A stretch of 64,000 nucleotides of DNA from Burkholderiales bacterium (lineage in GTDB: Bacteria; Pseudomonadota; Gammaproteobacteria; Burkholderiales; Ga0077523). Location: the NCBI GenBank assembly GCA_022843925.1, contig JALHMS010000017.1:53674-117673 (forward strand), given 5' to 3'. Under the pieces are notes generated by a model. The model was not told where the DNA came from, did no database searches, and saw only the letters and a list, made by a program, of their open reading frames with translations. Every line of letters starts with the position of its first letter. Position 1 is the first letter of the stretch. The translations under genes were made by a program, and so were the position numbers. Positions 40,613 to 56,179 of the stretch are shown here, in pieces.

Positions 40613-41305
40613 TCAGCTCCCGATCCGTCGCGTCCGGCGGCGGGCAGTGCCCAGTCCCACCAGTCCGAGCCCGATGCCCACCATGGCCCACGTGCCCGGT
40701 TCGGGGATCGGCAGGGCCGTTCCGGTCATCTCCACGCGAAGGCCGGTGGGATTCACCACGGCGGTGCCGTTGAACACGACGAAGTCGATGGTGTTGATGC
40801 CCGATACGAAGTAGTCGTCGAGCGTGAAGCTGGCGTAACCGAGACGGAAGGACTCGAACAGCGTGGTGTTGCCCGTTCCGTTCCCGTTCACCAGGATGTC
40901 CAGGCCGTTGTTGTCGGACATCCAGCGACCGACGATGACGGCCGTCGCCGGGTCGAAGCCCGTGAGGTCCACCGTCGTACGGTAGGTGTACTGACCCGTC
41001 GCGTTGTTGTTGGCGGCGTCGGGTCGCGGGCTGATCCACTTCGAAACGGCAGTGTTGGGGGCCCAGGCACCAATGGGAAAGCCGTTGTTGGTCACGAACG
41101 CTTCGGGACCGTTGAACACGACGTCCGGGCTATCGATCAGCGTGTAGTGCGGATCGACCGCCCCGCCGGGCAGAGGATTGCCCGAAGCATCGACGCCGGT
41201 ATTGAACACGGCGAGGTTCGAAACCGTGATGGCCTGTGACGGACCGGCGAAGGAGAGCGTCGCGGCAACGGCAAGGGCGGCGGTGAGGAACTTGGTGTGC
41301 ATCAT
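40613..41305 (-). CDS. PEP-CTERM surface protein 1
   Basis: Signal peptide; C-terminal IPEPGTWAMVGIGLGLVG + RRRTRR. Confidence 0.92.
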   Translation of the reverse strand: MMHTKFLTAALAVAATLSFAGPSQAITVSNLAVFNTGVDASGNPLPGGAVDPHYTLIDSPDVVFNGPEAFVTNNGFPIGAWAPNTAVSKWISPRPDAANNNATGQYTYRTTVDLTGFDPATAVIVGRWMSDNNGLDILVNGNGTGNTTLFESFRLGYASFTLDDYFVSGINTIDFVVFNGTAVVNPTGLRVEMTGTALPIPEPGTWAMVGIGLGLVGLGTARRRTRRIGS

Positions 41306-41372
41306 CGTGGACTCCGAGGTATTCCGTGGCTGACGTGTCGGAAATCTTTCATTCCGAGAGCTTGTGCCGACT

Positions 41373-41388
41373 AGCGGATTCCGTGCCA
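41373..41388 (-). promoter_or_regulatory. Sigma54 promoter of PEP-CTERM gene 1
   Basis: Minus strand TGGCACGGAATCCGCT (GG-N10-GC). Confidence 0.65.
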
Positions 41389-41450
41389 ATCTTAAAATCT
41401 ATTGTTAAGTCAGAATTTTCGGCGTCTCGACAGTCTGGAGGGCCAGTCCC

Positions 41451-41467
41451 TGTAAGACCTGTCGACA
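41451..41467. promoter_or_regulatory. Candidate enhancer-binding-protein site (TGT-N11-ACA)
   Basis: TGTAAGACCTGTCGACA ~65 nt upstream of the -24 element. Confidence 0.5.
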
Positions 41468-41505
41468 GTCCTGACGGACGACGGCGGCGGAATCGCCCGC
41501 CGACG

Positions 41506-44500
41506 TCAGTCCGGCGATCCATCGTCGACCGGCTGTGCGCGGGCTTCGACCAGCGCAAACAGCGCGGGGAGAACGACGAGAGTGAGGAGGGTGGACGTGA
41601 TCAGACCGCCGATCACCACGATGGCGAGGGGGCGCTGGACTTCGGATCCCGGCCCCGTGGCGAAGAGGAAGGGGATGAGGCCAAGCATCGCGACGGTCGC
41701 CGTCATCAGTACGGGGCGCAGCCGGGCGCCGGTGCCTTCGATGATCGCCTCGTTCACCGTCCGCCCCTCGGACCGGAGGGACGTGATGTAGGCCACGAGG
41801 ACGATGCCGTTCAGCACCGCGATGCCCCACAGCGCGATGAAGCCCACCGACGCGGGCACGGAGAGGTACTCCCCGGTCAGGAAGAGCGCAATCACGCCGC
41901 CGATGGACGCGAAGGGCAGCACCGTGATGATGAGGGCTGCGTAGCGCAGCGAACGGAACAGCAGGAACAGCAGGAAGAAGATCGCGGCAATGGTGGCTGG
42001 GACGATGAGCATCAGGTGCGACATCGCCTTTTCCATGTTCTGGAACTGACCTCCCCATTCGAGCGCATAGCCCGGTGGCAACGGCAGCCGTGCTGCGATC
42101 TCCTCCTGCAGTTCCGCCACGAAACCACCGAGATCACGCCCCGCCACGTTCATCCCCACCACGATCCGCCGCTTCCCGCCTTCCCGCGATATCTGCGCCG
42201 GGCCCTCGATCACCTGGATGTGTGCCAGGTCCCGCAGATGCACCCGGGTGCCGCGCGACGAGATGAGAAGCATGTCCTCGATGGCCGTTGCATCGTCGCG
42301 AAACTCTGCGGGCAATCGCACCGAGGCCGGGAATCGCCACTCCCCCTCGAAGACGTCCGTCGCGGTCTTCCCACCCACCGCAATCTCCACGAAGTCGCGG
42401 ATGTCCGTCACATTGAAGCCGTGCCGGGCGATGGCCTGGCGGTTCACCTCGATCTGCAGGTACTGCTGACCGGACACCTTCTCGATCCGGAAATCCTGCG
42501 CCCCGCGCACCCGCGCGGCGATCGCTGCGATCTGCTCTGCCAGCAGGCGCAGTTCCTCCATGTCGGGGCCGAACACTTTCACGGCGACGTCCGAACGCAC
42601 GCCCGTCACCATCTCGTCGACGCGGTCGGAGATGGGCTGGGCCATCACGATCTGCACGCCGGGGAGGTCCGCAAGTCGTTCGCGCATTCGCTGGGCGATG
42701 TCGTCCTGGGTCCAGCCTTCCGGCCACTCGCTGCGCGGCGTCAGCGTGACGATGGGGTCTGCCTCGTTGGGGCCGGCCGGGTCCGCGGGTGACTCGCCGC
42801 GACCGATCCGCGACACCGCCATCTTGACGCCGGGGATCTCCATCATCCGGCGCATGGCCTCCTGTTCCATGCGCACCGATTCATCGAGCGAGATGCTTGG
42901 CGCGCGCATGATGTTCGGAGAGACCGATCCCTCCTTCATCTCCGGGATGAACGAGGTGCCGAGGAACGGGAACAGGGCGAGCGTGCCGACGAACAGCGCG
43001 ACCGAGATGGCGACGGTCTTCCGGCTGTTGCCGAGCACCCACGTGAGCAGTGGACGGTAGCCGAGCTTCACCAGGGCGATGACCCGGGTGTCGTGGTCTG
43101 CGCCGCCCTTCAGGAGATAGCGGGCGACAGCGTGAGCGACAGCAGCAGCGATATCGCGAGCGCGATCGCGATCGTGAAGGCGAGCGGCGCGAACATCTTG
43201 CCCTCCATGCCCTCCAGCGTCATGAGAGGCAGGAAAACGAGAATGATGATGCTCACGCCGAACAGCACCGGTGTTGCGACCTCCATGGTCGACCGCAGGA
43301 TCGTGGCCGAGCGGCTGCCGATCGAGCTTTCCGCGCGCCCGAGATGGCTGAAAGCGTTCTCGACCACGACCACGGAGCCGTCCACCATCAGCCCGATCGC
43401 GATGGCGAGCCCGCCGAGCGACATCAGGTTGGCGGAGAGTCCCACGCGGTTCATCACGATGAAGGTCACCAGCGGTGTCAGCACGAGTGTGGCCACCACG
43501 ATGAGCGACGACCGCACGTCCCCGAGGAACAGGAACAGGACGATCACGACGAGGATGATCCCCTCGATCAGGACCTTCACCACCGTGCCCAGCGCGGCAT
43601 CGACGAGTTCCGATCGATCGTAGTACGGCACGATGCGCAGGCCGTCGGGTATCGCGCCGCTCGCGTTCAGCGCGGCGACCCGCATCTTCACCCGCGCCAC
43701 CACCGCCTTCGCGTTCTCGCCGGCGAGCATCATCACGATGCCGCCGACGCTCTCCGTGACCCCGTTCTTCACCATCGCGCCGAATCGTGGCTGATGCCAG
43801 ATGCGGACCTCCGCGACGTCGCGGATCAGCACCGGGGTCGTCGAGATCTCCTTCAACACGATGGCGCCCACGTCTCCGACGGATCGCACGAGGCCCAGTC
43901 CGCGGATCAGGTACTGGTCCGCATGGTGCGCGAGCACGCCACCGCCGAAGTTCGTGTTGTTCCGCCGGAGCGCCTCGTAGACGTTGCCTGGGGTGATGCT
44001 GAAGTGGCTGAGCCGGTCGGGATCCAGCACGACCTGGTACTGCTTCACATAGCCGCCGGTCGAATTGATCTCGGCGACGCCAGCGATCGATCGCAGATAC
44101 GGGCGCACCACCCAGTCCTGCAGGGTGCGCCGTTGCGTGAGTTCCTGCCTGGTGAGGGCGCGCTTGCCGTCGTCGGGATGCTCCAGGGTGTACTGGTAGA
44201 CCTCACCAAGAACCGACGAGACCGGCCCCAGCTGCGGCGTCACGCCCTCGGGCAGACGGTCGCGTACCTCGATGAGGCGCTCCGTGACCATCTGGCGGGC
44301 GAGGTACAGATCGGACTGCTCGGTGAAGACGAGCGTGATCAGCGAGAGCGACGGGCGATTCAGCGACCGCATCTCCACCAGCCCGGGCAGGCCCGTCATC
44401 GCGATCTCGACCGGCACGGTGACGGCACGTTCGATCTCCTGTGGCGACCGACCCAGCGCCTCGGTGGCGATCTGCACCTGGACGTTGGTGACGTCCGGGA

Positions 44501-44615
44501 ACGCATCCACCGACAGCTGGCGTACGGCCGCGAGGCCGGCGACGAACAGGATGCAGGCGACCACCACCACGACGACGCGCTGCCGCAGTGCCCCACGAAT
44601 GACAGCCTCGATCAA
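41506..44615 (-). pseudogene. CusA/CzcA-family heavy-metal RND permease, frameshifted near 43121 (or assembly error)
   Basis: N-half 43110-44615 (DAFPDVT, MVDGSVVVVEN) and C-half 41506-43071 (RLRPVLMT, GSEVQRPLA) in different frames; junction reads CCC GC TAT CTC CTG AAG. Confidence 0.85.
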
Positions 44616-44693
44616 GCGCCTCTCCGACGTGATGGACTGCGAGTCCGGAGGATACCCCCCCGGGCAGGCCGCGTCGGATCGGCGTCATGGCAC

Positions 44694-45635
44694 TCAGTGG
44701 ATCACGACCCCCCAGGGCATCTCGCCTACCGCGACATCCTTCACCTTCCTGTTCGTCGCGGTGTCGATCACCGAGACGGAATTGGACCGGCCGTTCGCGA
44801 CATACAACTTGGCGCCGTCGGGAGTGATCGCCATGTTCCAGGGGCGCTTGCCCACCGGGATGGTCGCCAGCACGACGTTCGATGTCGTGTCGATGACGGA
44901 CACGGTGGCGTCCTTGCCGTTGGAGACGTACACGCGCTTGCCGTCGGGGTGCATCGTCACGCCGTTCGAGTAGTTCCCCGTCGCGATCTTGGCGACGACG
45001 GTCCGCGCGGCCCAGTCGATGGCGTAGGTCGTGTTGGCGAGTTCGCACGCCACATACAGCCGGCTGCCGTCCGGTGTGAACGCCATGCCGCGCGGTCGGC
45101 TGCCCACCTGCACCTGGGCCACCTGCTTCCGGGTGTTCACGTCCACGATGTCGATCTGATCGGCCTCTTCCGCGCTTGCCACCATCCAGCGGCTGTCCGG
45201 CGAGAAGATCGCGTGCTCCGGGTTTTTTCCCTTCACCTTGATCGAGAAGGTGCGCTTGCCGGTGGCGGTGTCCACGAACGCCACCGAGTTGCTGACCTCC
45301 ACGGCGGCGACGACATAGCGGCCGTCCGGGGAGATCGCGACGCCTTCGGGCGACTCGCCGAGGTCGATGAGTTCGACGACCTTGCCGGCGTCGAGGTCGA
45401 CCACGGCGAGTGCGTTCTTGGGTTGGTCGCTCACGTAGATCCGGCGGCCATCGGGACTCACCGCCAGGCCCCGCGGCTTGTCTCCGGCCGGCACCGTCCG
45501 CAAGACGGTGTCGGTCTCGGTGTCGATGATGCTGAGGGTGCCCGACTTCTCGTTCGGGACGTAGGCGAAGGGCGCGGCCACGACATGGGCCGCGAGGAAC
45601 AGTGCGCCGGCGAGCGTGCCTGCGAGGGTCTTCAT
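44694..45635 (-). CDS. Periplasmic YVTN beta-propeller (resembles PQQ-catabolism-associated family)
   Basis: Signal peptide; AYVPNEKSGTLSIID and repeated G..P.G.A.SPDG..YV.N blades. Confidence 0.88.
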   Translation of the reverse strand: MKTLAGTLAGALFLAAHVVAAPFAYVPNEKSGTLSIIDTETDTVLRTVPAGDKPRGLAVSPDGRRIYVSDQPKNALAVVDLDAGKVVELIDLGESPEGVAISPDGRYVVAAVEVSNSVAFVDTATGKRTFSIKVKGKNPEHAIFSPDSRWMVASAEEADQIDIVDVNTRKQVAQVQVGSRPRGMAFTPDGSRLYVACELANTTYAIDWAARTVVAKIATGNYSNGVTMHPDGKRVYVSNGKDATVSVIDTTSNVVLATIPVGKRPWNMAITPDGAKLYVANGRSNSVSVIDTATNRKVKDVAVGEMPWGVVIH

Positions 45636-45807
45636 GATCACGCGCAAGATCTCCCTGTGACGGGTGGGACTGGTTGGGATTGCAACACCGCGGGATTCGC
45701 GGACCTGCCGACGGGGCAACGCGTCGAGGCCGTCCCGGACGACGTCGTCCGTCGCGAGGGCGCCGAGTATCGCATGGGTCCCGCAGCGGGCCGGTCGCGC
45801 CGTGACG

Positions 45808-45821
45808 GGGAAAAACTCCCG
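45808..45821 (-). promoter_or_regulatory. Candidate response-regulator site, copy 1
   Basis: Minus strand CGGGAGTTTTTCCC in divergent propeller/kinase intergenic region. Confidence 0.5.
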
Positions 45822-45908
45822 GCCGGGTCGAGGGGAAACCGTCCTTGTGACCCCCCTGGCCTTTCGGTATAAAACCTGATGCCGTGGCGCTCGCGCCGCG
45901 TTCGACGG

Positions 45909-47267
45909 ATGCACGAAGTGGACGGAGCGAAATTGGAGACGACGATCGACGGGTGGTCCGGCCGGCGGATCGCCAGCGGAGCAGGGGCGTGGCGGGACCT
46001 CGTCTTGGTCTTTTCGGTCACGGTCATCACGTTTCTGCTCGCCGGACTCCTCGAGCTGTCCGAGGGCATCGGTGGCTGGCTCACCCCTTTCGAGCGATAC
46101 CAGCTCGACGAACTCCCCGCCGCGATCCTCGTGCTGGTGGCGGGCCTCGGGTGGTTCTCGTGGCGGCGCTCACGTCACGCCGCGAGCGAGATGGAACTGC
46201 GCTTGCAGGCGCAGCAGGAGCTGAACGAGCAGCAGGCCCACTATCGGGAGCTCTTTCACGAAGACCTCTCCGGGAACGTCCTGGCAACGATCGACGGTGT
46301 GATCGGGCTCGCGAACCCGGAGCTCGCGCGGATTCTGGGCTTCACCGATCCGAACGATGTCGTCGGGCGGTGCATCGGCGACTTCTATGCGGATCCCGAC
46401 CTCTGGCGTCGCCACCGCGACGCCCTGGCGCGCGGCGAGAGCATCGCTTCGTCCGGACTCCGGCTGCGGCGGGGGGATGCCGCCGAGGTTTCCGCCATCG
46501 CGCGTCTCTCGAGCCGGCGACGGTCGGGCGGTGGCGTCGAGATGCACGGGTTCTTCGCCGACGTCACGGACCTGGAGCTCGTCCGGACGGCGCTCGCGAA
46601 GGCGCTCGACGAGAACCGGCAGCTCGCGCAGCGCGGCATCGACATGCTCGAGGCCGAGCGCAAGCACATCGCCCGTGAACTGCACGACGAGATGGGCCAG
46701 TGGCTGAATGCGCTCAAGATCGATGCGGTGTCCATCCGGGACCGCCCGGACATGCCGGTCGAGGTCAAGACCACAGCCCAGGCCATCGTCGAGCTGACTA
46801 ATCATGTGTACGACGTCGCGCGCGAGCTCATGCGCCGCCTGCGCCCCGTGGCCCTCGACGAGCTGGGGGTCGTCTCGGCAGTGCAGTACTCCGTCGATCA
46901 GTGGCAGCGTCGCCACGCCGGTGTCGCATGCCGGTTTGAGGCGGACGAGTTCCCCGAGCACCTCGGCGAGGCTCTGAACATGACCTTGTACCGGATGGTT
47001 CAGGAGTGCCTGACGAACGTCACGAAGCATGCGGGAGCCTCCGAAGTCGTCATCCGTCTGAGGCACGATCCGGCCGTCGGAGAGGTGGCGGTGGAAGTGG
47101 CGGACAACGGCAGTGGATTCGACAGTCGGGAGCCCAAGGGCGGGCTCGGACTGGTGGGGCTGCGCGAGCGCATCGATGCGCTCGGTGGCCGTTTCTGGGT
47201 GGAGGGCGGTCCCGGTCACGGCACGCGCGTATGTGCGCGGGTGCCTGTGACCGACGCGGGAGCATGA
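45909..47267 (+). CDS. Membrane PAS sensor histidine kinase (HisKA_3 type)
   Basis: Two TMs, PAS, IARELHDEMGQ, QECLTNVTKHA, DNGSG, GLGLVGLRER; start approximate. Confidence 0.92.
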   Translation: MHEVDGAKLETTIDGWSGRRIASGAGAWRDLVLVFSVTVITFLLAGLLELSEGIGGWLTPFERYQLDELPAAILVLVAGLGWFSWRRSRHAASEMELRLQAQQELNEQQAHYRELFHEDLSGNVLATIDGVIGLANPELARILGFTDPNDVVGRCIGDFYADPDLWRRHRDALARGESIASSGLRLRRGDAAEVSAIARLSSRRRSGGGVEMHGFFADVTDLELVRTALAKALDENRQLAQRGIDMLEAERKHIARELHDEMGQWLNALKIDAVSIRDRPDMPVEVKTTAQAIVELTNHVYDVARELMRRLRPVALDELGVVSAVQYSVDQWQRRHAGVACRFEADEFPEHLGEALNMTLYRMVQECLTNVTKHAGASEVVIRLRHDPAVGEVAVEVADNGSGFDSREPKGGLGLVGLRERIDALGGRFWVEGGPGHGTRVCARVPVTDAGA

Positions 47268-47947
47268 GCATGGCCAACAAGACGAAAGTGCTGCTGGTGG
47301 ACGATCACGCGGTGGTGCGTGAGGGGTACCGACGCCTGCTGGAAGGCACGCCGGACATCGCGGTGGTCGCGGAGGCGCGCAACGGCGAGGAGGCCTACCG
47401 GTTCTTCTGCGATCACGCGCCGGATGTCGTGGTGATGGACATCACGCTCCCCGGCATCGGCGGAATCGAGGTGGCGCGCCGGATCCTCACTCGCGAGCCG
47501 ACGGCGAGGATTCTGATGTTCAGCATGCACGAGGACGTCGTGTTCTCGTCCCGCGCGTTGCAGACCGGCGCGCGTGGCTACGTCACCAAGGCGAGCGCTC
47601 CGGAAGTCCTGGTGGAGGCCGTGAGGCTCGTCGCAGCGGGCAAGCTCTTCATCAGCCACGACATGGCGCAGGAACTGGCGGTCCAGATGCTCCCGGGCCA
47701 CGAGAATCCGCTGCAAGGGCTGTCGCCGCGGGAGTTCGAGGTGTTCCGACTCCTCGTGGCCGGTCACGCGATCGGGGAGATCGCCAAGATCCTCTCGCTC
47801 TCGTACAAGACCGTCGCGAATCACCAGTGGAACATCCGCCAGAAGCTGGACGTCTCCAACACCGCCCAGGTGGTACGCATGGCCATGACGCACGGCCTGC
47901 TCTCGCCGGACCATCCCGCCGCGGAGACGGTCGCGAACGGCGGGTAG
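47264..47947 (+). CDS. NarL/LuxR-family response regulator 1
   Basis: LVDDHAVVREGYRRLLE, MDI, LSPREFEV...KTVAN; overlaps kinase stop. Confidence 0.94.
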   Translation: MSMANKTKVLLVDDHAVVREGYRRLLEGTPDIAVVAEARNGEEAYRFFCDHAPDVVVMDITLPGIGGIEVARRILTREPTARILMFSMHEDVVFSSRALQTGARGYVTKASAPEVLVEAVRLVAAGKLFISHDMAQELAVQMLPGHENPLQGLSPREFEVFRLLVAGHAIGEIAKILSLSYKTVANHQWNIRQKLDVSNTAQVVRMAMTHGLLSPDHPAAETVANGG

Positions 47948-48343
47948 TCGAGTAGCCGTCCGGACTTGGGATGGTCCGGCTGCATGGTCGGGTGTGCGAT
48001 CAATGTTTCGCGGCATTCTCAACACGTAGTCCCGATACGCTCGCCGAGATCGTCAAGCCCTGTCCTGGCGCTCCTGCAGTTTCGCTATGGACCGCTCGAG
48101 TCCGACAGGCTGTTGGTCAGGTCTCCGGTCCTGCGGTGTGCTCCGCATGATGCGGGCTTGAGGTGGGCGACGAGGATCTCGAGCCCCTAGCCCGCGTTTG
48201 GTGTGCCAGTTGCCCACGGCAAGTTCCGCCGTTGGGACCGGGTGGTATGGGGCTTGGTCTTCCCAATCGCCCATCGCATCCCGGATCTGTGCGCTCGACG
48301 CCGATTTCTCCGCGCCTTCCTGCTGAGGTACTCCTGGGGCATA

Positions 48344-48358
48344 CGGGAATATTTCCCT
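48344..48358 (+). promoter_or_regulatory. Candidate response-regulator site, copy 2
   Basis: CGGGAATATTTCCCT upstream of TonB receptor, followed by -10-like TAGCCT at 48382. Confidence 0.5.
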
Positions 48359-48539
48359 AACGTCGGGCGATGCCCGGCCACTAGCCTCCATGGGCGGATG
48401 ATCCGCGCATGAACGCGCGGGCACACGTGCCATCCGGTCGATGCAATTGGGGCAGCGAGACCTCGCCGACGACTCCTCCATGGGTCGCGACGATGCCCGG
48501 GACCGGGCGACTGAAAACAACAACGACATCGGCGCGTAG

Positions 48540-51269
48540 ATGGACCGGGATTCGAATGAGGAGACTCGCCCTCGGGGGATGGGGCGGGTGGCGGTTGAGC
48601 GACAACGGTGGTGGTCATGCATGACGGCGTACATCGCCGTCGGCGCATTCGCGGGTCCGACCGGCGTAATCGTGGCGCCCGTGGCAGCACAGACGCCGCC
48701 GCCCGCAGGTGGCAGCAGTGGCACCGGCCTGGTGGCACCGACGGTGCGGGTGACCGCGCCCCGCATCGTCACTCCGTTGCCTGGGATCGTGATCGAACGG
48801 GAACAGATGACCACCAACGTGCAGAGCGCTACTGCCAAGGATCTCGAGGACTCCCGATCCGTCAGCCTGACCGACTACATGAACACCAACATGCAGTCGG
48901 TGACGGTCAATGACTATCAGGGAAATCCGTTCCAGCAGGATCTCAGCTTCCGCGGCTTCTCGGCGTCGCCCCTGATCGGCACGCCTCAGGGCCTCTCCGT
49001 CTACGTGGACGGTGTCCGCGTCAACGAGCCGTTCGGAGAGGTGGTGAACTGGGACCTCATTCCCATGAACGCCATCCAGCGCATGGACCTGTTGCCAGGT
49101 TCGGACCCCTTGTTCGGCCTGAACACCCTGGGTGGCGCTCTCTCGATCGCGACCAAGTCCGGATTCTCCTCGCCGAGGGTCGAGGGAAGTGTCCTGACGG
49201 GGAGTTGGGGGCGCCGGCAGGTGAAGGCAACGGCCGGGGGTAACAACGGGACACTGGGGGGTTTCGTCGCCCTCAACTTCTTCGACGAGGATGGCTGGCG
49301 GAGGAACTCGCCGTCTTCGGTGCGGCAGGCCTACGGGCGCCTGGATCTCCAGGGGGCGATCGGCAAGGCGACGCTGTCCGGGATGCATGCCAGCAACTCT
49401 CTGGTGGGAAACGGCTTGGTCCCGTTCGAGCAGTTCAGGCAGGACCCCACCGCGATCTTCACGTCCCCTGACGAAACCGACAATCGGATGAACCACGTCA
49501 ACGGGACTGTCGAGCTCAACCTCACGGACAGGGTCACCCTCTCGGCGCAGACCTACTACCGGAAGGTGAACCAGAAGTCCATCAACGGCGACATCTGGGA
49601 AGACTTCCGGGCCGCGGCCGCGCGCCTCCGGATCGAATGCAACAACGGCCTCCCCAACGCGACCGCCGATGGTGCAGTCGGTGTGGACCTCCCGGGATGT
49701 GCCAACGTGCAGCCCAATGGCGTCTTCAATATCGGCCGGGCGAATCAGGTGGCCAACGGCATCTCGTGGCAGTTGAGTTCGCTGTCCGAGACCAACCAGC
49801 TGGTGGTCGGTGCCGCGCTGGACATGAACAGCGTGGATTTCCGTCAGGCCCAACAGCTCGGGTTCACCACGGACAACCGCGACATCGTGCTTCGGCCGGA
49901 AGCCTACGACGAACTGTTTCTGATTCCGCTGATTTCCGAGATCCAGCGGAACAATCTTTCTGGTGGCATGCAAAGCGGCAGTCTCTTCGTGAAGGACATC
50001 TGGTCGGTCCGGCCGAATCTGCATCTCAATGCCGGTGTGCGCTACACCAGATCCAGGGTCACCAGTTCGCTGATCTCCGACCGCCCGATTCCGCTCTATC
50101 AGTTCGACGAGCGGTTGTTTCTTCGACAGTTACCTCGCTGCGGTGCGGAGCGGGGTGACCCCTTCGCCCGCTTCTTCTGCAGCACCGGGAACTACCTCTA
50201 CGAAAGCGTGAACCCCTCGTTCGGTGCCTCCTGGCTCCCCAGCGAGGATCTCAACCTGTACGCGAACTGGAGCAAGGGCTCTCGCGTCCCCAGCACGATC
50301 GAACTCGGGTGCGCCCGGGACCGCGAGGCCGAGCGGCTCGCGGGCGGCGGTGCGACGAACCGGGGCAAATCGCCGGGGTGTTCGGTGCCGACGGCACTGT
50401 CGAGCGATCCGTTTCTCCCCCAGGTGTTCTCGTATACGACCGAGGTGGGTATCCGCGGGTCGATCACACCGCAGATCACCTGGAACGCGGCGCTTTACCA
50501 GACGAATCTGGCGAACGACATCATCTTCGTTTCCCTGGGCTCCCGGAATCGCGGGGTGTTCGACACCTTCGGAAAGACACGGCGGCGTGGCCTCGAACTC
50601 GGCATGGAGGGCGGTGTCGGCCAGCACTTCTTCCGGGCCTCGTATTCCCGGATCGATGCGACCTTCGAAAGCGAAGCGGAGGTCGTCAACCCTTCGAACA
50701 GCAGTTCGGACAAGACGTTGGGCCAAGTCAACACGTTCAGGATCCAACCTGGTGACCGGATTCCGGGAATTCCGCGGGATTCCCTTCGGCTCAACTGGCG
50801 ATACGACTGGACCGACCGCTTCAACTTCGGTCTGTCGATGATTGCCCATGCGTGGTCCTACGTGCGCGGTAACGAGAACAACGAGCACCAGCCCGTGGGC
50901 ACCGACTCGTCCGGCTCGCCAACCGTCGGGACCCTTGACCCGACGATCACGGTCGAGCCGGGGCGGCGATACGTCGGAGAGGGGAAGATTCCCGGCTACG
51001 CCATATTCCACCTGATGGCGAACTACGAGGCGACCAAGCAACTGAGCTTCGGTTTGCGCGTCGACAACGTCTTCGATCGTCGGTATGTCACGGCCGGCGG
51101 CCTAGCATTGAATTCCTTCACGCCGTCCGTTTGGGGCGCCCGCGACGCGGGAGGCTTCAACTACAACTCCAACGACTGGACCCACTCCACGTTCGTCGGG
51201 CCCGGTGCCCCGCGGGCGATGTGGGTGTCCATGACTTACGTATTCGACACCCCTGGGGGGCGGCAGTGA
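48540..51269 (+). CDS. TonB-dependent receptor
   Basis: TVRVTA TonB-box-like, plug RGF...VYVDGVRVN...LGGAL, C-terminal VDNVFD...GAPR; start may be 48579. Confidence 0.93.
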   Translation: MDRDSNEETRPRGMGRVAVERQRWWSCMTAYIAVGAFAGPTGVIVAPVAAQTPPPAGGSSGTGLVAPTVRVTAPRIVTPLPGIVIEREQMTTNVQSATAKDLEDSRSVSLTDYMNTNMQSVTVNDYQGNPFQQDLSFRGFSASPLIGTPQGLSVYVDGVRVNEPFGEVVNWDLIPMNAIQRMDLLPGSDPLFGLNTLGGALSIATKSGFSSPRVEGSVLTGSWGRRQVKATAGGNNGTLGGFVALNFFDEDGWRRNSPSSVRQAYGRLDLQGAIGKATLSGMHASNSLVGNGLVPFEQFRQDPTAIFTSPDETDNRMNHVNGTVELNLTDRVTLSAQTYYRKVNQKSINGDIWEDFRAAAARLRIECNNGLPNATADGAVGVDLPGCANVQPNGVFNIGRANQVANGISWQLSSLSETNQLVVGAALDMNSVDFRQAQQLGFTTDNRDIVLRPEAYDELFLIPLISEIQRNNLSGGMQSGSLFVKDIWSVRPNLHLNAGVRYTRSRVTSSLISDRPIPLYQFDERLFLRQLPRCGAERGDPFARFFCSTGNYLYESVNPSFGASWLPSEDLNLYANWSKGSRVPSTIELGCARDREAERLAGGGATNRGKSPGCSVPTALSSDPFLPQVFSYTTEVGIRGSITPQITWNAALYQTNLANDIIFVSLGSRNRGVFDTFGKTRRRGLELGMEGGVGQHFFRASYSRIDATFESEAEVVNPSNSSSDKTLGQVNTFRIQPGDRIPGIPRDSLRLNWRYDWTDRFNFGLSMIAHAWSYVRGNENNEHQPVGTDSSGSPTVGTLDPTITVEPGRRYVGEGKIPGYAIFHLMANYEATKQLSFGLRVDNVFDRRYVTAGGLALNSFTPSVWGARDAGGFNYNSNDWTHSTFVGPGAPRAMWVSMTYVFDTPGGRQ

Positions 51270-51346
51270 CGCTGCGCCACGGGGCTGTTCCGCTGTTGTA
51301 TCGCCCGATGCCACCGCATGCGGGTTTCTTTTCGATGGAGGCCTAA

Positions 51347-52195
51347 ATGAAGTTGAAACAACTCGTTGTAGCAGTCTCGATGTCTCTCGCGGCGGCGTCA
51401 GCCGTTGCCGGGGACTTCACACCATTGCCCACCGACGGTTCCCTGGTCATCGGGAGAACCAATCCGAACAGCGACAGGTTGTTCCTCGATGCGACGTCGA
51501 TCACCTTCCTCACGACCGATATCCCGTCGACGATCGCATACAACGCCATTGCTACCGCTGGTACATTGCCCCGTGCGATCACGGGTTCGGGAGTGCTGAC
51601 GCTCCTGGACCACATGGTGACGCTGGACATCGCGATTCCCGAGAGCCAGGGATCGAGCAGCACCGTGCAGATCGGTCATCTCTACGATTTCGTGTTCCGC
51701 GATTCTCGTGACGACGCCCTCGTGTTCGGCACGCGAGTGCGTCTGGGTGTCGCGCCCAATCAGATCGACGATGCGGAGCTGAACTTCCTCTACCGCTATG
51801 GGTTCCAGGACGGTTCGACCACCTACTCGACGGCTGCAGCCTGGCTCTTCACGAGCGACTTCGACCTTCGGATGTACAACGCGGGGATGACAAGCTCCAC
51901 CAGCCTGCTGGGTGCCACCCCCTACGATCCGAACACGGTGCGCATGCAGTCGGACGTCAATCTGTCCGAGGGGAACCCCTTCAGCGGGCTCTTCCTGGTC
52001 AAGACCGATGCCACCGCCTACACGATCGGCAACGCGATCGGTGTGTTCCAGGCTGGCGAGGAAGGGCAACCGCAGGTCGGGGCGAACTTCATGGGTTTCG
52101 TACCTGCGCCGATCCCGGAGCCTTCCACCTACGCGATGTTGCTCGGTGGGCTTGGGCTGCTCGGCGTGATGGCGAAGCGTCGTCGCGCGGTCTGA
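51347..52195 (+). CDS. PEP-CTERM surface protein 2
   Basis: GGAGG RBS; signal peptide; IPEPSTYAMLLGGLGLLG + KRRR. Confidence 0.92.
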   Translation: MKLKQLVVAVSMSLAAASAVAGDFTPLPTDGSLVIGRTNPNSDRLFLDATSITFLTTDIPSTIAYNAIATAGTLPRAITGSGVLTLLDHMVTLDIAIPESQGSSSTVQIGHLYDFVFRDSRDDALVFGTRVRLGVAPNQIDDAELNFLYRYGFQDGSTTYSTAAAWLFTSDFDLRMYNAGMTSSTSLLGATPYDPNTVRMQSDVNLSEGNPFSGLFLVKTDATAYTIGNAIGVFQAGEEGQPQVGANFMGFVPAPIPEPSTYAMLLGGLGLLGVMAKRRRAV

Positions 52196-52221
52196 TGTTC
52201 AGTTTGTGAGACCGCAGGGAT

Positions 52222-52271
52222 GCGGCCCGGAACGGTACCTTGGTGGTGCCGTTCCGGGCCGCTCAGCTTTT
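52222..52271 (+). terminator. Hairpin/terminator after PEP-CTERM gene 2
   Basis: GCGGCCCGGAACGGTACC-TTGGT-GGTGCCGTTCCGGGCCGC then TCAGCTTTT. Confidence 0.65.
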
Positions 52272-52350
52272 GCGGGTCATCACCTCGAAATATCCCCGGC
52301 CGTGTGCCCCTTCGAAGCGTACGTGCCGACTGCCAGCAAGCGAGCCCTGA

Positions 52351-53031
52351 ATGGCTGAACCTTCCCGTACCACGGTGTTGCTCGTGGACGACCATGCCGT
52401 CGTCCGAGAGGGCTATCGGCGTCTGTTGGAGCGCACGCAGGACCTCCAGGTGATCGCCGAGGCCAGCACCGGCGAGGAGGCCTATCGCCTGTTCTCGGAG
52501 TGCAGACCGCGCGTCGTCGTCATGGACATCAGTCTTCCGGGTATCGGCGGGATCGAAGCCGCGCGGCGCATCCTTGCCCGCGAGCCCGAAGCCCGGGTCC
52601 TGATGTTCAGCATGCACGAGGACGTCGTGTTCTCTTCGCGTGCGTTGCAGGCCGGTGCCCGCGGCTATGTCACCAAGTCGAGCGCCCCGGAAGTCCTGGT
52701 CGATGCGGTCCGCCTGGTGGCCGAGGGCAAGCTCTACATCAGTCACAAGATGGCGCAGGAACTGGCCGTCCAGATGATGCCCGGCGGCCAGCATCCGCTG
52801 AATGCCCTTTCGGCGCGTGAGTTCGAGGTCTTCCGCCTGCTCGTCGCGGGGCACGCGGTGGCTGAGATCGCGAAGATCCTGTCGCTCTCGTACAAGACCG
52901 TGGCGAACTACCAGTCGAGCATCCGCCAGAAGCTCGACGTGGCGACCGCCGCCCAGGTGGTCCGCATGGCCCTGTCGCACGGATTCCTGACCGGAGACAT
53001 TCCCGGTTCTGAGAGCGGCCAAACCCAGTGA
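52351..53031 (+). CDS. NarL/LuxR-family response regulator 2 (orphan paralog of 47264-47947)
   Basis: Same motifs as regulator 1 with long identical stretches. Confidence 0.94.
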   Translation: MAEPSRTTVLLVDDHAVVREGYRRLLERTQDLQVIAEASTGEEAYRLFSECRPRVVVMDISLPGIGGIEAARRILAREPEARVLMFSMHEDVVFSSRALQAGARGYVTKSSAPEVLVDAVRLVAEGKLYISHKMAQELAVQMMPGGQHPLNALSAREFEVFRLLVAGHAVAEIAKILSLSYKTVANYQSSIRQKLDVATAAQVVRMALSHGFLTGDIPGSESGQTQ

Positions 53032-53047
53032 TGCAGCTCGGGAGGAT

Positions 53048-53062
53048 CGGGAGTTTTTCCTG
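53048..53062 (+). promoter_or_regulatory. Candidate response-regulator site, copy 3
   Basis: CGGGAGTTTTTCCTG; 13 nt identical to copy 1. Confidence 0.5.
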
Positions 53063-53119
53063 CCCATGACCGAGTCGATGGCACCTGTGGCGGGGATGCC
53101 CGGCCCACTACATTACGTT

Positions 53120-53245
53120 CCGTAGCTTGCTTCACCGCGAAGACCCGGGGCGCCGAGTGACCGGCAGGCCTGATGCAGTACCTCCGGGTGTTCGTCACTC
53201 CTCTCTCTACCAGGGCCGGATCCGGAAAGATCCGGCCCTTTTTTT
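53120..53245 (+). ncRNA. Candidate small regulatory RNA
   Basis: -10-like TACATT at 53109; stem 53138-53150/53182-53194; CU-rich single-stranded tract; strong terminator; no credible ORF. Confidence 0.45.
53212..53245 (+). terminator. Strong intrinsic terminator
   Basis: AGGGCCGGATC-CGGAAA-GATCCGGCCCT followed by TTTTTT. Confidence 0.88.
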
Positions 53246-53274
53246 CGCGGGTGGCGATCCACGTGGTCGGTCAC

Positions 53275-53814
53275 TCACTCCTGCAGCACCGACGCGTCCG
53301 CGCCCAGAGCGCTCAGCCGCGCCCGGTAGACCGCCAGCAACTCGCGGATCTCGCCCTGCTCGCCGGCCGGGAACAGGCCGATGTGGTCGATCACCGGCCG
53401 CAACGTTGCCGTCCCTTCAGGCCACCGGTTGAGCGCCGCGAGCGAGCGCGCCAGCTCGACGCGTCGGCGACTGACGGCGATCGGATCCGTGATCCGGGCA
53501 TCCGCCGCGAGGTCGAGCGATTCGGTCAGTGCCTTGGCGGCCTCCCCGAAGCGTGCCCCCCGGCGGTAGAAGACGCCGAGCTGGTAGAGCGCCTCCGACT
53601 GCTCGGCCTTGCCCATCGAAGTGCGGGCGCGATGCAGCGCCGAAAGATAGTAGGCCTCGGCATTGGTGCCGCTGCCGTCGGCCTCGGCCTGGACCGCCGC
53701 TTTCCGGTACTGCTCGAAGATCGCGTTGTCGGAGCTGCAACCCGCCACGAGCGTGGCGACGAGCATCCGGCAGGCCTGCTGCAGCAGGGCATGACGTGGC
53801 GGAACGACATTCAT
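53275..53814 (-). CDS. TPR-like lipoprotein
   Basis: Lipobox VAGC; helical ALYQLG..Y...F.EA...L pattern. Confidence 0.7.
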   Translation of the reverse strand: MNVVPPRHALLQQACRMLVATLVAGCSSDNAIFEQYRKAAVQAEADGSGTNAEAYYLSALHRARTSMGKAEQSEALYQLGVFYRRGARFGEAAKALTESLDLAADARITDPIAVSRRRVELARSLAALNRWPEGTATLRPVIDHIGLFPAGEQGEIRELLAVYRARLSALGADASVLQE

Positions 53815-53949
53815 GCGTGAACCTCGTGGATGGGGCGCCGCGATCCGGCACCGATCGACCGTGGCGAGTGTACCGACGCACACCAGATGCCGCGATGTCC
53901 TGCGACCGGGCGGGATAGAATCGACCGAGATACCCACCCGGACCCTGCC

Positions 53950-54486
53950 GTGAAGCTGGAACGCATCCGCATCGAGTTCGACATGGAGCAGGACCGTCTG
54001 CTCATGTTCATCCTGATCCACGGCGCCGCCGAGGTGCGGCTCTGGCTCACGCGGCGTTGCGTGAAGCGCTTCTGGATCGCCATGCAGAAGATGGCGGAAT
54101 GGAAGCCCGAGATCCAGCGTCAGCCCACCCCCGAAGCCCGGACGGCCGTTCTGCAGTTCGAGCACGAGAAGGCCCTGCGCGAGGTGAAGTTCTCACGCCA
54201 GGAAACCGAACCGCCCGAAGTGGCACCACGGGCCCAGCCGCTGGGACCCGAACCGCTGCTCGTCACCCGGATCCAGGCCCGCCGCGAGCCCGACGGCCGC
54301 ACGCTGATCGCGCTCCTTCCGGCCGACGGGCAGGGCGCGCACCTCACCCTCAGTGAAAGCCTGTTGCATGGGCTCATGAAGCTTCTGCAGCAGGCGGTGG
54401 CGAAGGCCGAATGGGATCTCGTGCTGGAGCTGCCGCAGGTCGATCTCTCCTTTGCCGGCACGGGGGGCGCACGAACACTCAACTAG
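53950..54486 (+). CDS. Hypothetical protein
   Basis: GTG start; EQDRLL...LWLTRR...AEWDL; typical codon usage; no function assignable. Confidence 0.7.
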   Translation: MKLERIRIEFDMEQDRLLMFILIHGAAEVRLWLTRRCVKRFWIAMQKMAEWKPEIQRQPTPEARTAVLQFEHEKALREVKFSRQETEPPEVAPRAQPLGPEPLLVTRIQARREPDGRTLIALLPADGQGAHLTLSESLLHGLMKLLQQAVAKAEWDLVLELPQVDLSFAGTGGARTLN

Positions 54487-54592
54487 ACCGCATCCCGGTG
54501 CCGTGTCCCCCACGGTCCGTACGTTTCGATAATGGGTGGAGGCCAGGGCGATGAGCCGCCGCCACTCCGATGGATACCCAGGAGGAAAATCC

Positions 54593-55003
54593 ATGAAGTT
54601 TGCGGAAGCCAGCCTGAACACGCCGTGGCGCGTGCTGATCGCCACCCTCGCGGTTCTCTGTACCGTGTTCTTCTCGGGGGCGCTCCGGGCGGACGATGCT
54701 GCGGGGGATCTCGCCGTGCCGGTGGACGATCCCGCCGCGGTGGCATTGGGCAAGGAGAAGTACAGCGCGAAGTGCGGAGGCTTCTGCCATGGCAGTGGTG
54801 GCAAGGGCGCACGTGCACCCTGCATCGTCTGCGGACGCTACAAGCGCGGCGGAACGAACGCCGAACTGGTGAAGAACATCGCCGACGGCATCCCGGGGAC
54901 GCCGATGGGCGCCTTCGGAGAGGTCTATTCGCGCGACGAGATCATCGCGCTGGTGGCCTACCTGCGGTCCGAGCAGAAGCGGCGGGAGGCGGAACAGCAG
55001 TAG
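54593..55003 (+). CDS. Periplasmic class I cytochrome c with atypical CX3CH motif
   Basis: GGAGG RBS, signal peptide, G...Y...CGGFCHG.GG.G, distal I.DG..GTPMGAF, I.ALVAYLRS. Confidence 0.8.
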   Translation: MKFAEASLNTPWRVLIATLAVLCTVFFSGALRADDAAGDLAVPVDDPAAVALGKEKYSAKCGGFCHGSGGKGARAPCIVCGRYKRGGTNAELVKNIADGIPGTPMGAFGEVYSRDEIIALVAYLRSEQKRREAEQQ

Positions 55004-55035
55004 CGGTCTCGCGTACGTGACGTCGATCGCTGGTG

Positions 55036-56166
55036 TTCGTGGGTCGAGCACTAGCTCGACGCTGCGATGGCTTGGGAGCAGAGGCGAATCCAGGAACGCA
55101 GGCGTCGAGCGAAGCTCGACCCACGGGGGTGGTTCTCAGCGTCGAGGCATCCAGTCGCGAGGGCTCTTCGTGGGTCGAGCACTGCTCGACGCGGCGATGG
55201 CTTGGGAGCAGAGGCGAATCCAGGAACGCAGGCGTCGAGCGAAGCTCGACCCACGGGGGTGGTTCTCAGCGTCGAGGCATCCAGTCGCGAGGGCTCTTCG
55301 TGGGTCGAGCACTGCTCGACGCGGCGATGGCTTGGGCACTTCGGCGAATCCAGGAACGCGGGCGTCGGGCGAAGCCCGACCCACGGAGGGTGTTCTCAGC
55401 CCCGAGGCATCCAGTGGCGAGCGCCCTTCGTGGGTCGAGCAACAGCTCGACGCGGCGATGGCTTGGGCACAGCAGCGAATCCAGGAACGCGGGCGTCGAG
55501 CGGAGCTTGAGCCACGGGGGGTGTTCTCAGCCCCGAGGCATCCAGTGGCAAGGGCCCTTCGTGGGTCGAGCACTGCTCGACGCTGCGATGGTTTGGGCAC
55601 AGCAGCGAATCCAGGAACGCAGGCGTCGGGCGGAGCCCGACCCACGGGGGTTGTTCTCAGCCCCGAGGCATCCAGTGGCAAGGGCCCTTCGTGGGTCGAG
55701 CATCGCTCGACGCTGCGATGGCTTGGGCACAGCAGCGAATCCAGGAACGCAGGCGTCGGGCGGAGCCCGACCCCCGGGGGGTGTTCTCAGCCCCGAGGCA
55801 TCCAGTGGCAAGGGCCCTTCGTGGGTCGAGCATCGCTCGACGCTGCGATGGCTTGGGCACAGCAGCGAATCCAGGAACGCGGGCGTCGGGCGGAGCCCGA
55901 CCCACGGAGGGTGTTCTCAGCCCCGAGGCATCCAGTGGCGAGCGCCCTTCGTGGGTCGAGCAACAGCTCGACGCGGCGATGGCTTGGGCACAGCAGCGAA
56001 TCCAGGAACGCGGGCGTCGAGCGGAGCTCGACCCACGGGGGTGATTGTCAGCATCGAGGCATCCAGTCGCGAGGCCCCTTCGTGGGTCGAGCATCGCTCG
56101 ACGCTGCGATGGCTGGGGCGTAGCAGTGAATTCAGGAACGCGGGCGTCGAGCGGAGCTCGACCCAC
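55036..56166. repeat. Tandem array of inverted REP pairs (BIME/REPIN-like), 8 full 130-131 bp units + 1 partial
   Basis: Units start at 55036, 55167, 55297, 55427, 55558, 55688, 55818, 55948, 56079; each GTGGGTCGAGC-N3/4-GCTCGACGC ... GCGTCGRGC-N3-GCYCGACCCAC. Confidence 0.9.
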
Positions 56167-56179
56167 ATCGCCGACGAAA

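Follow-up and report, generated by a model that had tools for sequence, protein, structure and literature searches.

In the SusC/SusD and TbpA/TbpB systems, a TonB-dependent barrel is paired with a dedicated surface lipoprotein that is encoded next to it. Proteins carrying the PEP-CTERM sorting signal are common in environmental bacteria, and very few of them have a known role; the nearest precedent in print for such a protein in the company of a receptor is ZepA of Anabaena sp. PCC 7120, described as an exoprotein that supplies zinc, with receptors and other PEP-CTERM genes located near zepA (PMC10957091). YVTN beta-propellers have been described as parts of two lanthanide uptake systems, PedA2 in PedA1A2BC and LutB in LutBAH (PMC6839425, PMC9291206). 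In Methylobacillus flagellatus, a lanthanum-induced receptor of the lanthanide response, Mfla_1253, is followed by a sigma-54 regulator gene, according to an account that also reports a lack of conservation in the set of lanthanide-handling proteins among methylotrophs (PMC9988556). Here we describe a locus in a 64,000-nucleotide stretch of a Burkholderiales genome (GenBank assembly GCA_022843925.1, contig JALHMS010000017.1, positions 53,674 to 117,673; hereafter the window), in which genes for a YVTN propeller, a two-component system and a TonB-dependent receptor cluster with a gene for a PEP-CTERM protein that we call PEP2. With a probability that we put at about 0.55, this locus encodes a two-component-controlled, TonB-dependent outer-membrane transport system in which PEP2 is the surface partner of the receptor. 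Literature searches found no published description of this receptor-PEP2 pair; a preprint on cyanochelin was considered as a match and set aside, as it concerns a different iron cluster.

A conserved module with a shared palindrome

The window lies on contig C17 (G+C content of the window about 67%) of a genome of 5.57 Mb and 99% completeness, G000; other genomes, contigs and loci are likewise given G, C and L numbers. Gene order was established from Pfam and NCBIfam family scans combined with a codon-position GC filter. The gene for a seven-bladed YVTN beta-propeller with a signal peptide (PROP; 44694-45635, minus strand; 243 bits to TIGR02276) diverges from the gene for a sensor kinase with PAS, HisKA_3 and HATPase domains (45909, or 45879 if an alternative start is used, to 47267, plus strand; Pfam and NCBIfam), which is followed on the same strand by RR1, the gene for a NarL/FixJ-type response regulator (47270-47947; Response_reg and GerE). 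Further along the plus strand lie the genes for an 896-residue TonB-dependent receptor with plug and barrel (48579, alternatively 48540, to 51269), for PEP2, a PEP-CTERM-sorted beta-sandwich protein (51347-52195; PF07589), and for RR2, a NarL-type paralog of RR1 recognized by family scan, which is the last gene of the receptor operon (52351-53031). A preliminary description of this stretch had proposed a larger sensing and uptake module that also took in an RND pump, a small RNA (sRNA) and a cytochrome. The genes that it named are all present, and so are the sequence features that it listed: a propeller start of the AYVxNEK type, VLLVDDHAVVREGYRRLLE in both regulators, the plug motif of the receptor and the CX3CH motif of the cytochrome.

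We compared the window proteins by tblastn with ten loci from other species of the genus, a synteny check that the preliminary description had recommended. The order propeller / kinase-RR1-receptor-PEP2 recurs in all ten, and RR2 is present in all nine that extend to its position. What is conserved is a smaller unit than had been proposed, consisting of the YVTN propeller, the PAS-HisKA_3 kinase with RR1, and the receptor with PEP2 and RR2.

Read from its sequence, the kinase has two membrane helices separated by a loop of about 17 residues, then the PAS, HisKA_3 and HATPase domains, and no periplasmic sensor domain. The regulators belong to the NarL/FixJ family by their receiver and GerE domains, and the kinase to the HisKA_3 family by its HisKA_3 and HATPase domains; none of the NCBIfam equivalogs for regulators of this kind (UvrY/GacA, MctR, NarL, ErdR) reaches its cut-off with RR1 or RR2. 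RR1 is 82-99% identical across the relatives and 77% identical to RR2, and the DNA-reading helices of the two are nearly the same. The mature propeller begins APFAYVPNEK. It is the only protein of the genome to match TIGR03866, at 227.7-228.2 bits and below the cut-off of 287.3. Members of that family are encoded in an ABC transport operon beside genes for dehydrogenases dependent on pyrroloquinoline quinone (PQQ); family scans of 37.5-58.8 kb of the window detected neither an ABC transporter nor a PQQ dehydrogenase.

The preliminary description had noted that three intergenic regions share one motif, and all three do contain a common 13-bp palindrome, GGGAR-N3-YTCCC. Written as the pattern GGGRNWWTTTCC, it has three matches in the window (45809-45820, minus strand; 48345-48356, plus; 53049-53060, plus), as against 0.03 expected from shuffled sequence, and none of 100 shuffles reaches three. 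The same pattern has seven matches in the 5.57 Mb of the whole genome, four of which precede functionally linked genes, namely the three in the window and one at C24:50775. The DosR box is a palindrome with GGGA half-sites too, like the operator of the window.

The placement of the palindrome was then compared across the same ten loci. Palindrome 2 (GGGAATATTTCCC, 48345-48357, no strand assigned) lies in the receptor promoter region, and its counterpart stands before the receptor in 10 of the 10 loci, at a fixed spacing to a -10-like box: TAAC-like bases come next and a CTAnnCT box follows 23-24 nt on. The window has the same arrangement, with TAAC beside the palindrome and a -10-like TAGCCT after 24 nt, from which we infer that palindrome 2 is a promoter element of the receptor gene, centred near -43. 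Palindrome 1 (GGGAAAAACTCCC, 45808-45820, strandless), in the divergent region between propeller and kinase, recurs in nine of the ten loci, with none found in L024. For palindrome 3 (GGGAGTTTTTCCT, 53049-53061, also strandless), downstream of RR2, the equivalent site is clear in five of the ten, degenerate in two, absent from one and not assessable in two.

A second promoter layout emerges at other sites. Toward the kinase, palindrome 1 is followed by 22 nt, CCTTGTGA, 17 nt and TATAAA, and palindrome 3 is followed by 22 nt, CCTGTGGC, 17 nt and TACATT. The only paralog of PEP2 in the genome (on C3, 34% identity) has a palindrome, GGGAATATCTCCC, about 100 nt before its start codon, and there the motif, 22 nt, CCTGTSG, 14 nt and TATATT follow one another. 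The promoters of the kinase, the candidate sRNA and the PEP2 paralog thus have in common a palindrome, 22 nt, a CCTGTSG-like -35 box, 14-17 nt and TAnnnT. If the transcription starts deduced from these boxes are right, this layout would set the palindrome near -66, compared with about -43 at the receptor.

The fourth perfect site of the genome, C24:50775, lies about 90 nt before tonB-exbB-exbD. A palindrome precedes the orthologous tonB in 8 of 11 loci of the genus and was not found in G008, G009 and G015. In the lineage of G007, the position that the sRNA candidate takes up in the window is filled by a PEP2-like gene, immediately downstream of RR2 and preceded by the same palindrome. Beyond the genus, 23 of the 46 assessable loci have a palindrome before the receptor, among them 13 of 13 from Methyloversatilis, which carry two copies 27 bp apart.

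In the circuit that we propose, the membrane-anchored kinase, with its PAS domain in the cytoplasm, would phosphorylate RR1, and RR1 and its twin RR2 would bind GGGAR-N3-YTCCC and activate the adjoining promoters. Their targets would include the receptor-PEP2-RR2 operon, through the site near -43, the kinase-RR1 operon together with the divergent propeller gene, and a short CU-rich RNA, through a site near -66, as well as the tonB-exbB-exbD operon on another contig and the PEP2 paralog on a third. With RR2 and the kinase operon among its own targets, the circuit would reinforce itself. That the locus is an autoregulated module for sensing and outer-membrane transport had been put forward in the preliminary description, and an operator that is conserved across the genus and recurs before tonB-exbBD argues for it. 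A clean operator used in two promoter geometries, together with a candidate sRNA, would also make the locus a model for how two near-identical regulators can serve one kinase.

Other sites resembling regulatory elements were seen in the course of these scans. In several genomes, the palindrome of the tonB promoter is immediately followed by a conserved 19-nt element, CAAATGAGAAYGSTTTGCA (L110 1790-1815, equivalent to C24 at about 50790-50815); the element was considered as a Fur box and rejected, as it agrees with the E. coli Fur consensus at 11 of 19 positions. There is no Fur-like box before the receptor of the window, the best matches of the region reaching at most 13 of 19 positions and all lying in coding sequence. 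Two tandem near-palindromes, GGGAATAAGTCCC and GGGAGTTAGTCC, stand just before a gene of the PF07995 glucose/sorbosone dehydrogenase family (C12, 58669-60620, L112), downstream of which are a possible cytochrome and then a phosphodiesterase. A site before a PQQ dehydrogenase gene (C12:99071) was discarded as part of the regulon: it falls within the spacer of a TTGACA-17-TACTTT promoter and occurs in G000 and G014 only among 14 loci. This dehydrogenase (C12, 99058-102496, L141) is itself conserved in the genus, with 88-98% identity in 13 relatives' loci and a conserved promoter of the TTGACA-17-CTTAAC type.

The receptor and its predicted surface partner

The receptor has an ordinary plug and barrel and lacks an N-terminal signalling domain. 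Its orthologs in 15 genomes of the genus are 55-77% identical, and the plug motif GNPFQQD..FRGF.ASP..GTPQG is invariant in an alignment of 20 sequences. Among NCBIfam models, the receptor falls only into general siderophore-type families, below their cut-offs; PF25183, found in some of its homologs, is a generic barrel model that does not match the window receptor. Identity with PqqU, which the preliminary description had suggested checking, does not hold up: the receptor scores 81.2 bits against NF041535, whose cut-off is 1200, and the best PqqU-like gene of the genome (C4:181310-183295, 578.6 bits) lies elsewhere, beside pqq genes.

In an M. flagellatus genome, one homolog of the receptor is followed by a sigma-54 regulator gene and is, judging from this gene order in another strain, probably the ortholog of Mfla_1253. 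The window receptor is 34% identical to it (443 bits) and has the same plug signature. Closer to this sigma-54-linked receptor are a 796-residue receptor on C4 of the window's own genome (44%, 613 bits) and a second receptor of G007 (45%), one of three genomes (with G018 and G019) where the propeller has a second receptor as its immediate neighbour. In M. flagellatus, the gene that matches the window receptor best is a different one, linked to PEP2 (739.7 bits). Since the C4 and G007 receptors are the closer relatives and the best match in M. flagellatus is the PEP2-linked gene, the window receptor appears to be a paralog, not an ortholog, of the lanthanum-type receptor.

The region of C4 between 168 and 200 kb (L139, L140) contains pqqB, pqqC and pqqE, a 651-residue TonB-family protein, a prolyl aminopeptidase and the PqqU-like receptor (578 bits), as well as another PAS-HisKA_3 kinase accompanied by a NarL regulator (51% identity to RR1), the 796-residue receptor and ABC transporter genes. 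The best Fur-like boxes of the genome lie near this pqq locus, beside receptors other than that of the window, and no palindrome was found at it. Since a lanthanum-type receptor, a PqqU-like gene and pqq genes occur together there, the genome probably has an uptake locus already: C4 looks like its site of PQQ and lanthanide uptake, and the window module would be a paralogous system with different accessories. A search for quinoprotein dehydrogenase and pqq genes, also recommended in the preliminary description, yielded nine PQQ-dehydrogenase-like genes, six of them over the family cut-off and none on C17, besides pqqB, pqqC and pqqE. The family associations drawn there, between such propellers and receptors and PQQ- or lanthanide-dependent dehydrogenase loci, hold in part: YVTN propellers do occur in lanthanide systems, the plug signature is shared and the dehydrogenase and pqq genes are present, but the TIGR03866 and PqqU cut-offs are missed.

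By the PEP-CTERM models PF07589/TIGR02595 (cut-off 20.7 bits), the window encodes two PEP-CTERM proteins, PEP2 with 36.1 bits and PEP1 with 27.2 bits, and an XrtB exosortase is encoded elsewhere in the genome (381 bits, cut-off 275). PEP2 has 226 relatives in a large protein collection. A scan of one genome per species gave 65 PEP2 loci. Named genera account for 42 of them (Methyloversatilis 15, Methylophilus 14, Methylobacillus 7, Methylophilaceae 3, Methylotenera 2, Methylomonas 1) and 23 come from metagenome-assembled genomes of Beta- or Gammaproteobacteria without a named genus. A receptor ortholog, 42-76% identical, stands directly upstream on the same strand at 51 of the 65 and is adjacent but divergent at 7; two loci have no receptor and five have too little sequence to tell, so that receptor and PEP2 are neighbours at 58 of 60 informative loci. 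More than one PEP2-like gene is present at 46 of the 65. At eight, comprising all seven from Methylobacillus and one from Methylophilaceae, the series receptor-PEP2-PEP2' lies directly upstream of a cluster of XrtB, EpsL, EpsD, EpsE and EpsF, and in Methyloversatilis universalis the neighbours of the pair are housekeeping genes unrelated to it. A kinase or regulator near the pair is found mainly in the window's genus, with a regulator of more than 45% identity at 15 loci.

The structure model of PEP2 is a confident beta-sandwich (pLDDT 85.5, pTM 0.81) that gave no match at E<=0.001 in a Foldseek search of the PDB (best E 0.016, TM-scores at most 0.25); a search of a protein atlas returned PEP-CTERM clusters only. 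The invariant residues of PEP2 include six Asp, four Glu and two Asn, and no His, Cys or Met. When the receptor barrel (residues 190-896) was modelled together with PEP2 (residues 23-256) using custom alignments, the complex scores were 0.83, 0.83 and 0.84, compared with 0.00 for the best of three controls. The runs have at least 75% of their contacts in common, and the pLDDT of the partner is at least 89. On the receptor, the contacts fall in segments 344-369, 446-448, 502-531, 713-718 and 780-793, which lie in long loops that alternate with turns of 2-4 residues in the barrel model, as expected of the outer face; segments 502-531 and 780-793 coincide with insertions absent from the shorter, 800-residue paralog. 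On PEP2, the predicted contacts take in residues 171-178, 184-192, 201-211 and 237-243 and include the conserved SEGNP and AGEEGQ blocks. The complex model supports binding of PEP2 to the receptor while falling short of a demonstration. It makes PEP2 the predicted extracellular partner of the receptor, seated on its outer loops, and this partnership is a point that the preliminary description had not contained.

We propose that PEP2 would be exported, processed by the exosortase and brought to the cell surface, where, on the long extracellular loops of the receptor, it would hand over cargo or help to capture it. TonB-ExbBD would then power the entry of the cargo into the periplasm, where the propeller may act. 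As a first guess, the cargo would be a hard metal cation or its chelate, with lanthanide the leading single candidate. Of the cargoes named in the preliminary description (lanthanide, PQQ or another metal), a lanthanide is possible and PQQ unlikely. For the PEP-CTERM family, a protein that is almost always encoded beside one receptor and is predicted to dock on it would be a concrete and testable function, and the occurrence of the pair in the culturable methylotrophs M. flagellatus and M. universalis makes such tests practical.

The candidate small RNA and neighbouring genes

Behind palindrome 3, a terminator scan revealed a candidate sRNA of about 125 nt (plus strand, with predicted ends near 53120 and 53246). 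A hairpin on its 5' side is followed by unpaired, CU-rich sequence, CACUCCUCUCUCUA, and then by an intrinsic terminator at 53212-53246. The same layout follows RR2 in eight genomes (G000, G014, G022, G016, G012, G005 and the records of L036 and L049), as a palindrome, a -10 box, a UCCGU-like 5' start, a variable body of about 100-130 nt, a CU-rich stretch and a strong terminator, and no reading frame is common to the eight homologs. Two lineages lack it. BLAST of the region against 25 genomes of the genus matched only G014 over most of its length, and the other homologs were found by position; a search of 53000-53300 against Rfam 15 was negative even with E as high as 1. The predicted folds have z of about -2 in five homologs. 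A scan for 12-mers complementary to the candidate returned 19 sites with nothing coherent among them, and when duplex energies for 14 curated start regions were ranked against 3157 crude gene starts, the best percentile was 7.6 (the propeller). The conserved promoter-plus-terminator unit looks like an sRNA, as had been predicted, but the adjustment of targets that was predicted with it has no counterpart among these results. The unit could alternatively be a terminated leader, left behind when a downstream PEP2-like gene moved.

The RND pump that had been counted as part of the module is a lineage-specific insertion. The gene for this CusA/CzcA-type permease occupies two frames on the minus strand (41506-43071 and 43110-44615; TIGR00914) and, with the PEP1 gene (40613-41389, minus strand; PF07589 family scan), is found at one of the ten relatives' loci, that of G014; elsewhere the propeller abuts a TPR gene. 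The two halves score 533 and 551 bits against TIGR00914, whose cut-off of 701 bits applies to an intact protein of about 1050 residues. Near 43072-43112, 10 bp are missing between short direct repeats relative to G014, whose gene reads through, and the broken gene of the window is either a pseudogene or an assembly error. Family scans detected no gene for a membrane-fusion or outer-membrane factor next to it. PEP1 travels with this insertion and is related to PEP2 in its sorting signal only; of the two PEP-CTERM proteins, PEP2 belongs to the core and PEP1 does not.

Between the sRNA candidate and the cytochrome gene lie genes for a TPR lipoprotein (53275-53814, minus strand) and for a 167-residue protein (53983-54486, plus strand). 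The latter has good coding statistics and no Pfam or NCBIfam match, and it is encoded directly before the cytochrome, with 70-98% identity, at four of the ten relatives' loci. The small cytochrome c (54593-55003, plus strand; PF13442) has the haem motif CGGFCH, a CX3CH motif that all five distinct sequences compared, one from the window and four from relatives, retain as C[GS]GFCH; L033, a sixth locus, covers the same stretch of genome as L023 and was not counted. After the haem motif, the cytochrome and its orthologs have a second conserved C-x-x-C-G without a histidine. The protein is a general PF13442 cytochrome c, with 22.2 bits against the model for cytochrome cL/MoxG (TIGR03872, cut-off 147.8). 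A paralog on C12 (38% identity), encoded 1.2 kb downstream of the genus-conserved PQQ dehydrogenase, has the canonical CSYCH; because this paralog has CXXCH, one residue appears to have been inserted in the haem motif in the lineage of the window cytochrome. The cytochrome follows the module, together with the 167-residue gene, at 4 of the 10 loci, and no palindrome was found upstream of it in the window or at the relatives' loci. It is a neighbour of the module, and its inclusion in the regulon, as first proposed, is not supported.

The flanking genes lie outside the module: on the left LpoB, DUF1425 and a TPR gene, and on the right a repeat array followed by glycolate-oxidase-like genes. The array (55036-56166), directly 3' of the cytochrome gene, consists of a 130-nt unit, itself containing inverted repeats, in about 8.5 tandem copies. 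The unit has 439 blastn matches on many contigs of the genome, and the apparent open reading frames at 55017-56250 consist of it. On the whole, the preliminary description was right in kind and wrong on several parts.

Competing explanations and comparison with known systems

Several points weigh against the transport system that we propose. The pattern GGGRNWWTTTCC was drawn up only after the sites had been seen, and the looser pattern GGGARNNNYTCCC has 23 sites genome-wide, mostly inside coding sequence by crude gene calls, as against about 50 estimated from base composition, which is no enrichment. None of 23 Methylophilaceae loci has the palindrome before the receptor, though the receptor-PEP2 pair is kept, and most receptor-PEP2 loci have no kinase or regulator nearby; the regulation described here is for these reasons valid for part of the receptor-PEP2 family only. 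The consensus fold of the eight sRNA homologs consists of five terminator pairs only, the body being too diverged and without covariation, and no mRNA of the regulon stands out as a target. In calibration, 58 of 80 solved complexes and 2 of 110 mismatched pairs attained the mark applied to complex scores; these counts hold only roughly for a model that left out the plug and relied on custom alignments, and a barrel model of mediocre quality (pLDDT 64.1) places loops on the outer side only approximately. The route by which PEP-CTERM proteins cross the outer membrane is described as not known (PMC10957091).

Among the rival explanations, the best placed, though in our view still unlikely, is that the module acquires lanthanides, with PEP2 capturing them at the surface, the receptor serving as a LutH-like channel and the propeller acting in the manner of LutB or PedA2, to feed PQQ alcohol dehydrogenases. 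All 42 PEP2 loci from named genera belong to genera that we take to be methylotrophs. The receptor and the sigma-54-linked receptor of M. flagellatus fall into one subfamily, and the second receptor beside the propeller in G007, G018 and G019 points the same way, as do the YVTN propellers of the two known uptake systems and the nine PQQ-dehydrogenase-like genes of the genome. The invariant Asp, Glu and Asn residues of PEP2, with no His, Cys or Met among them, would suit hard cations. However, the closer homolog of the lanthanum-type receptor lies beside pqqB, pqqC and pqqE on C4, with its own kinase, regulator, PqqU-like receptor and ABC genes, whereas the window module has neither an ABC transporter nor a binding protein, its propeller is below the TIGR03866 cut-off and its kinase is devoid of a periplasmic sensor domain. 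Only two of 14 loci show the palindrome before the genus-conserved PQQ dehydrogenase, and Fae and Mch were not found in the genome at its completeness of 99%. Furthermore, the main text of the M. flagellatus study (section 4) names one induced receptor only (PMC9988556), and the PEP2-linked receptor of that species is a different gene.

A more specific form of this idea, which we regard as speculative and somewhat less probable, casts PEP2 as a "lanthanophore": a surface protein, processed by the exosortase, that would capture lanthanides through its conserved Asp/Glu blocks and load a LutH-like receptor paralog whose extra loops would have evolved to hold it, with, in the window's genus, the PAS kinase and twin regulators as the switch and the CU-rich sRNA for tuning. 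Given that the receptor is paralogous to the lanthanide-linked type and that the set of lanthanide proteins varies among methylotrophs, the receptor-PEP2 pair is a reasonable candidate for a missing part. If true, PEP2 would provide a second, protein-based lanthanide route in Methylophilaceae, Methyloversatilis and their relatives.

Improbable, to a slightly greater degree, is that the barrel works outward or has a structural role, as an outer-membrane passage or anchor for PEP-CTERM proteins within exosortase- and exopolysaccharide-dependent surface building, and is not an importer. A TonB-dependent transporter is reportedly needed for protease secretion in Myxococcus. The predicted contact with the barrel would fit docking or anchoring as well as import, many loci have several PEP2-like genes, an XrtB is encoded in the window's genome and the unexplained outer-membrane route of PEP-CTERM proteins would find an answer. 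Yet the adjacency to XrtB/Eps clusters at 8 of 65 loci is confined to one genus and one other genome, the plug is ordinary, and gene order makes an uptake receptor the nearest characterized relative; the shared regulation with tonB-exbBD is no less compatible with import. Least probable of all is that the module serves another scarce nutrient (zinc, iron or haem, cobalt or cobalamin, calcium, or a carbohydrate or other organic compound) and that the link to methylotrophs reflects shared betaproteobacterial ancestry and not function, as the zinc-supplying ZepA with its nearby receptors (PMC10957091), the 19-nt element in the tonB promoter, if it is a metal-regulator box, and the general siderophore-type families into which NCBIfam places the receptor are outweighed by the absence from PEP2 of the conserved His or Cys expected for zinc, the lack of a Fur- or Zur-like box before the receptor, the poor Fur match of the tonB element, the low PqqU score and control by a two-component system in place of Fur or Zur.

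The two-component-controlled transport system proposed here may be compared with known ones. Its HisKA_3 kinase with a NarL-type regulator resembles MxcQE and PedS2/PedR2, which are found near quinoprotein loci (in part PMC9988556). It differs from them in that one kinase, devoid of a periplasmic domain, is paired with two regulators; neither the pqq locus nor the conserved promoter of the PQQ dehydrogenase has its operator. With the lanthanide systems LutH/LanA, LutB/PedA2 and Mfla_1253 it shares a receptor of the same subfamily and a YVTN propeller in one regulon, in genomes rich in PQQ dehydrogenases. In contrast to these systems, the window module has no ABC transporter or binding protein and its propeller falls short of the TIGR03866 cut-off; its receptor is distinguished by long extra loops and by its PEP-CTERM partner, and the pqq locus of the same genome encodes a closer homolog of the lanthanum-type receptor.

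As in SusC/SusD and TbpA/TbpB, a surface protein encoded beside the barrel is predicted to cover its extracellular face. The partners in those systems are lipoproteins, however, whereas PEP2 has an exosortase sorting signal and a fold without a match in the PDB. ZepA, finally, acts outside the cell in metal supply and has been proposed to hand its cargo to an outer-membrane receptor (PMC10957091), much as we suggest for PEP2, and the known likeness between the two is one of sorting signal and gene context. ZepA is controlled by Zur and is predicted to bind zinc through histidines, whereas PEP2 has no conserved His and would be controlled by a two-component system; and PEP2, unlike ZepA, is almost always encoded directly downstream of one particular receptor.

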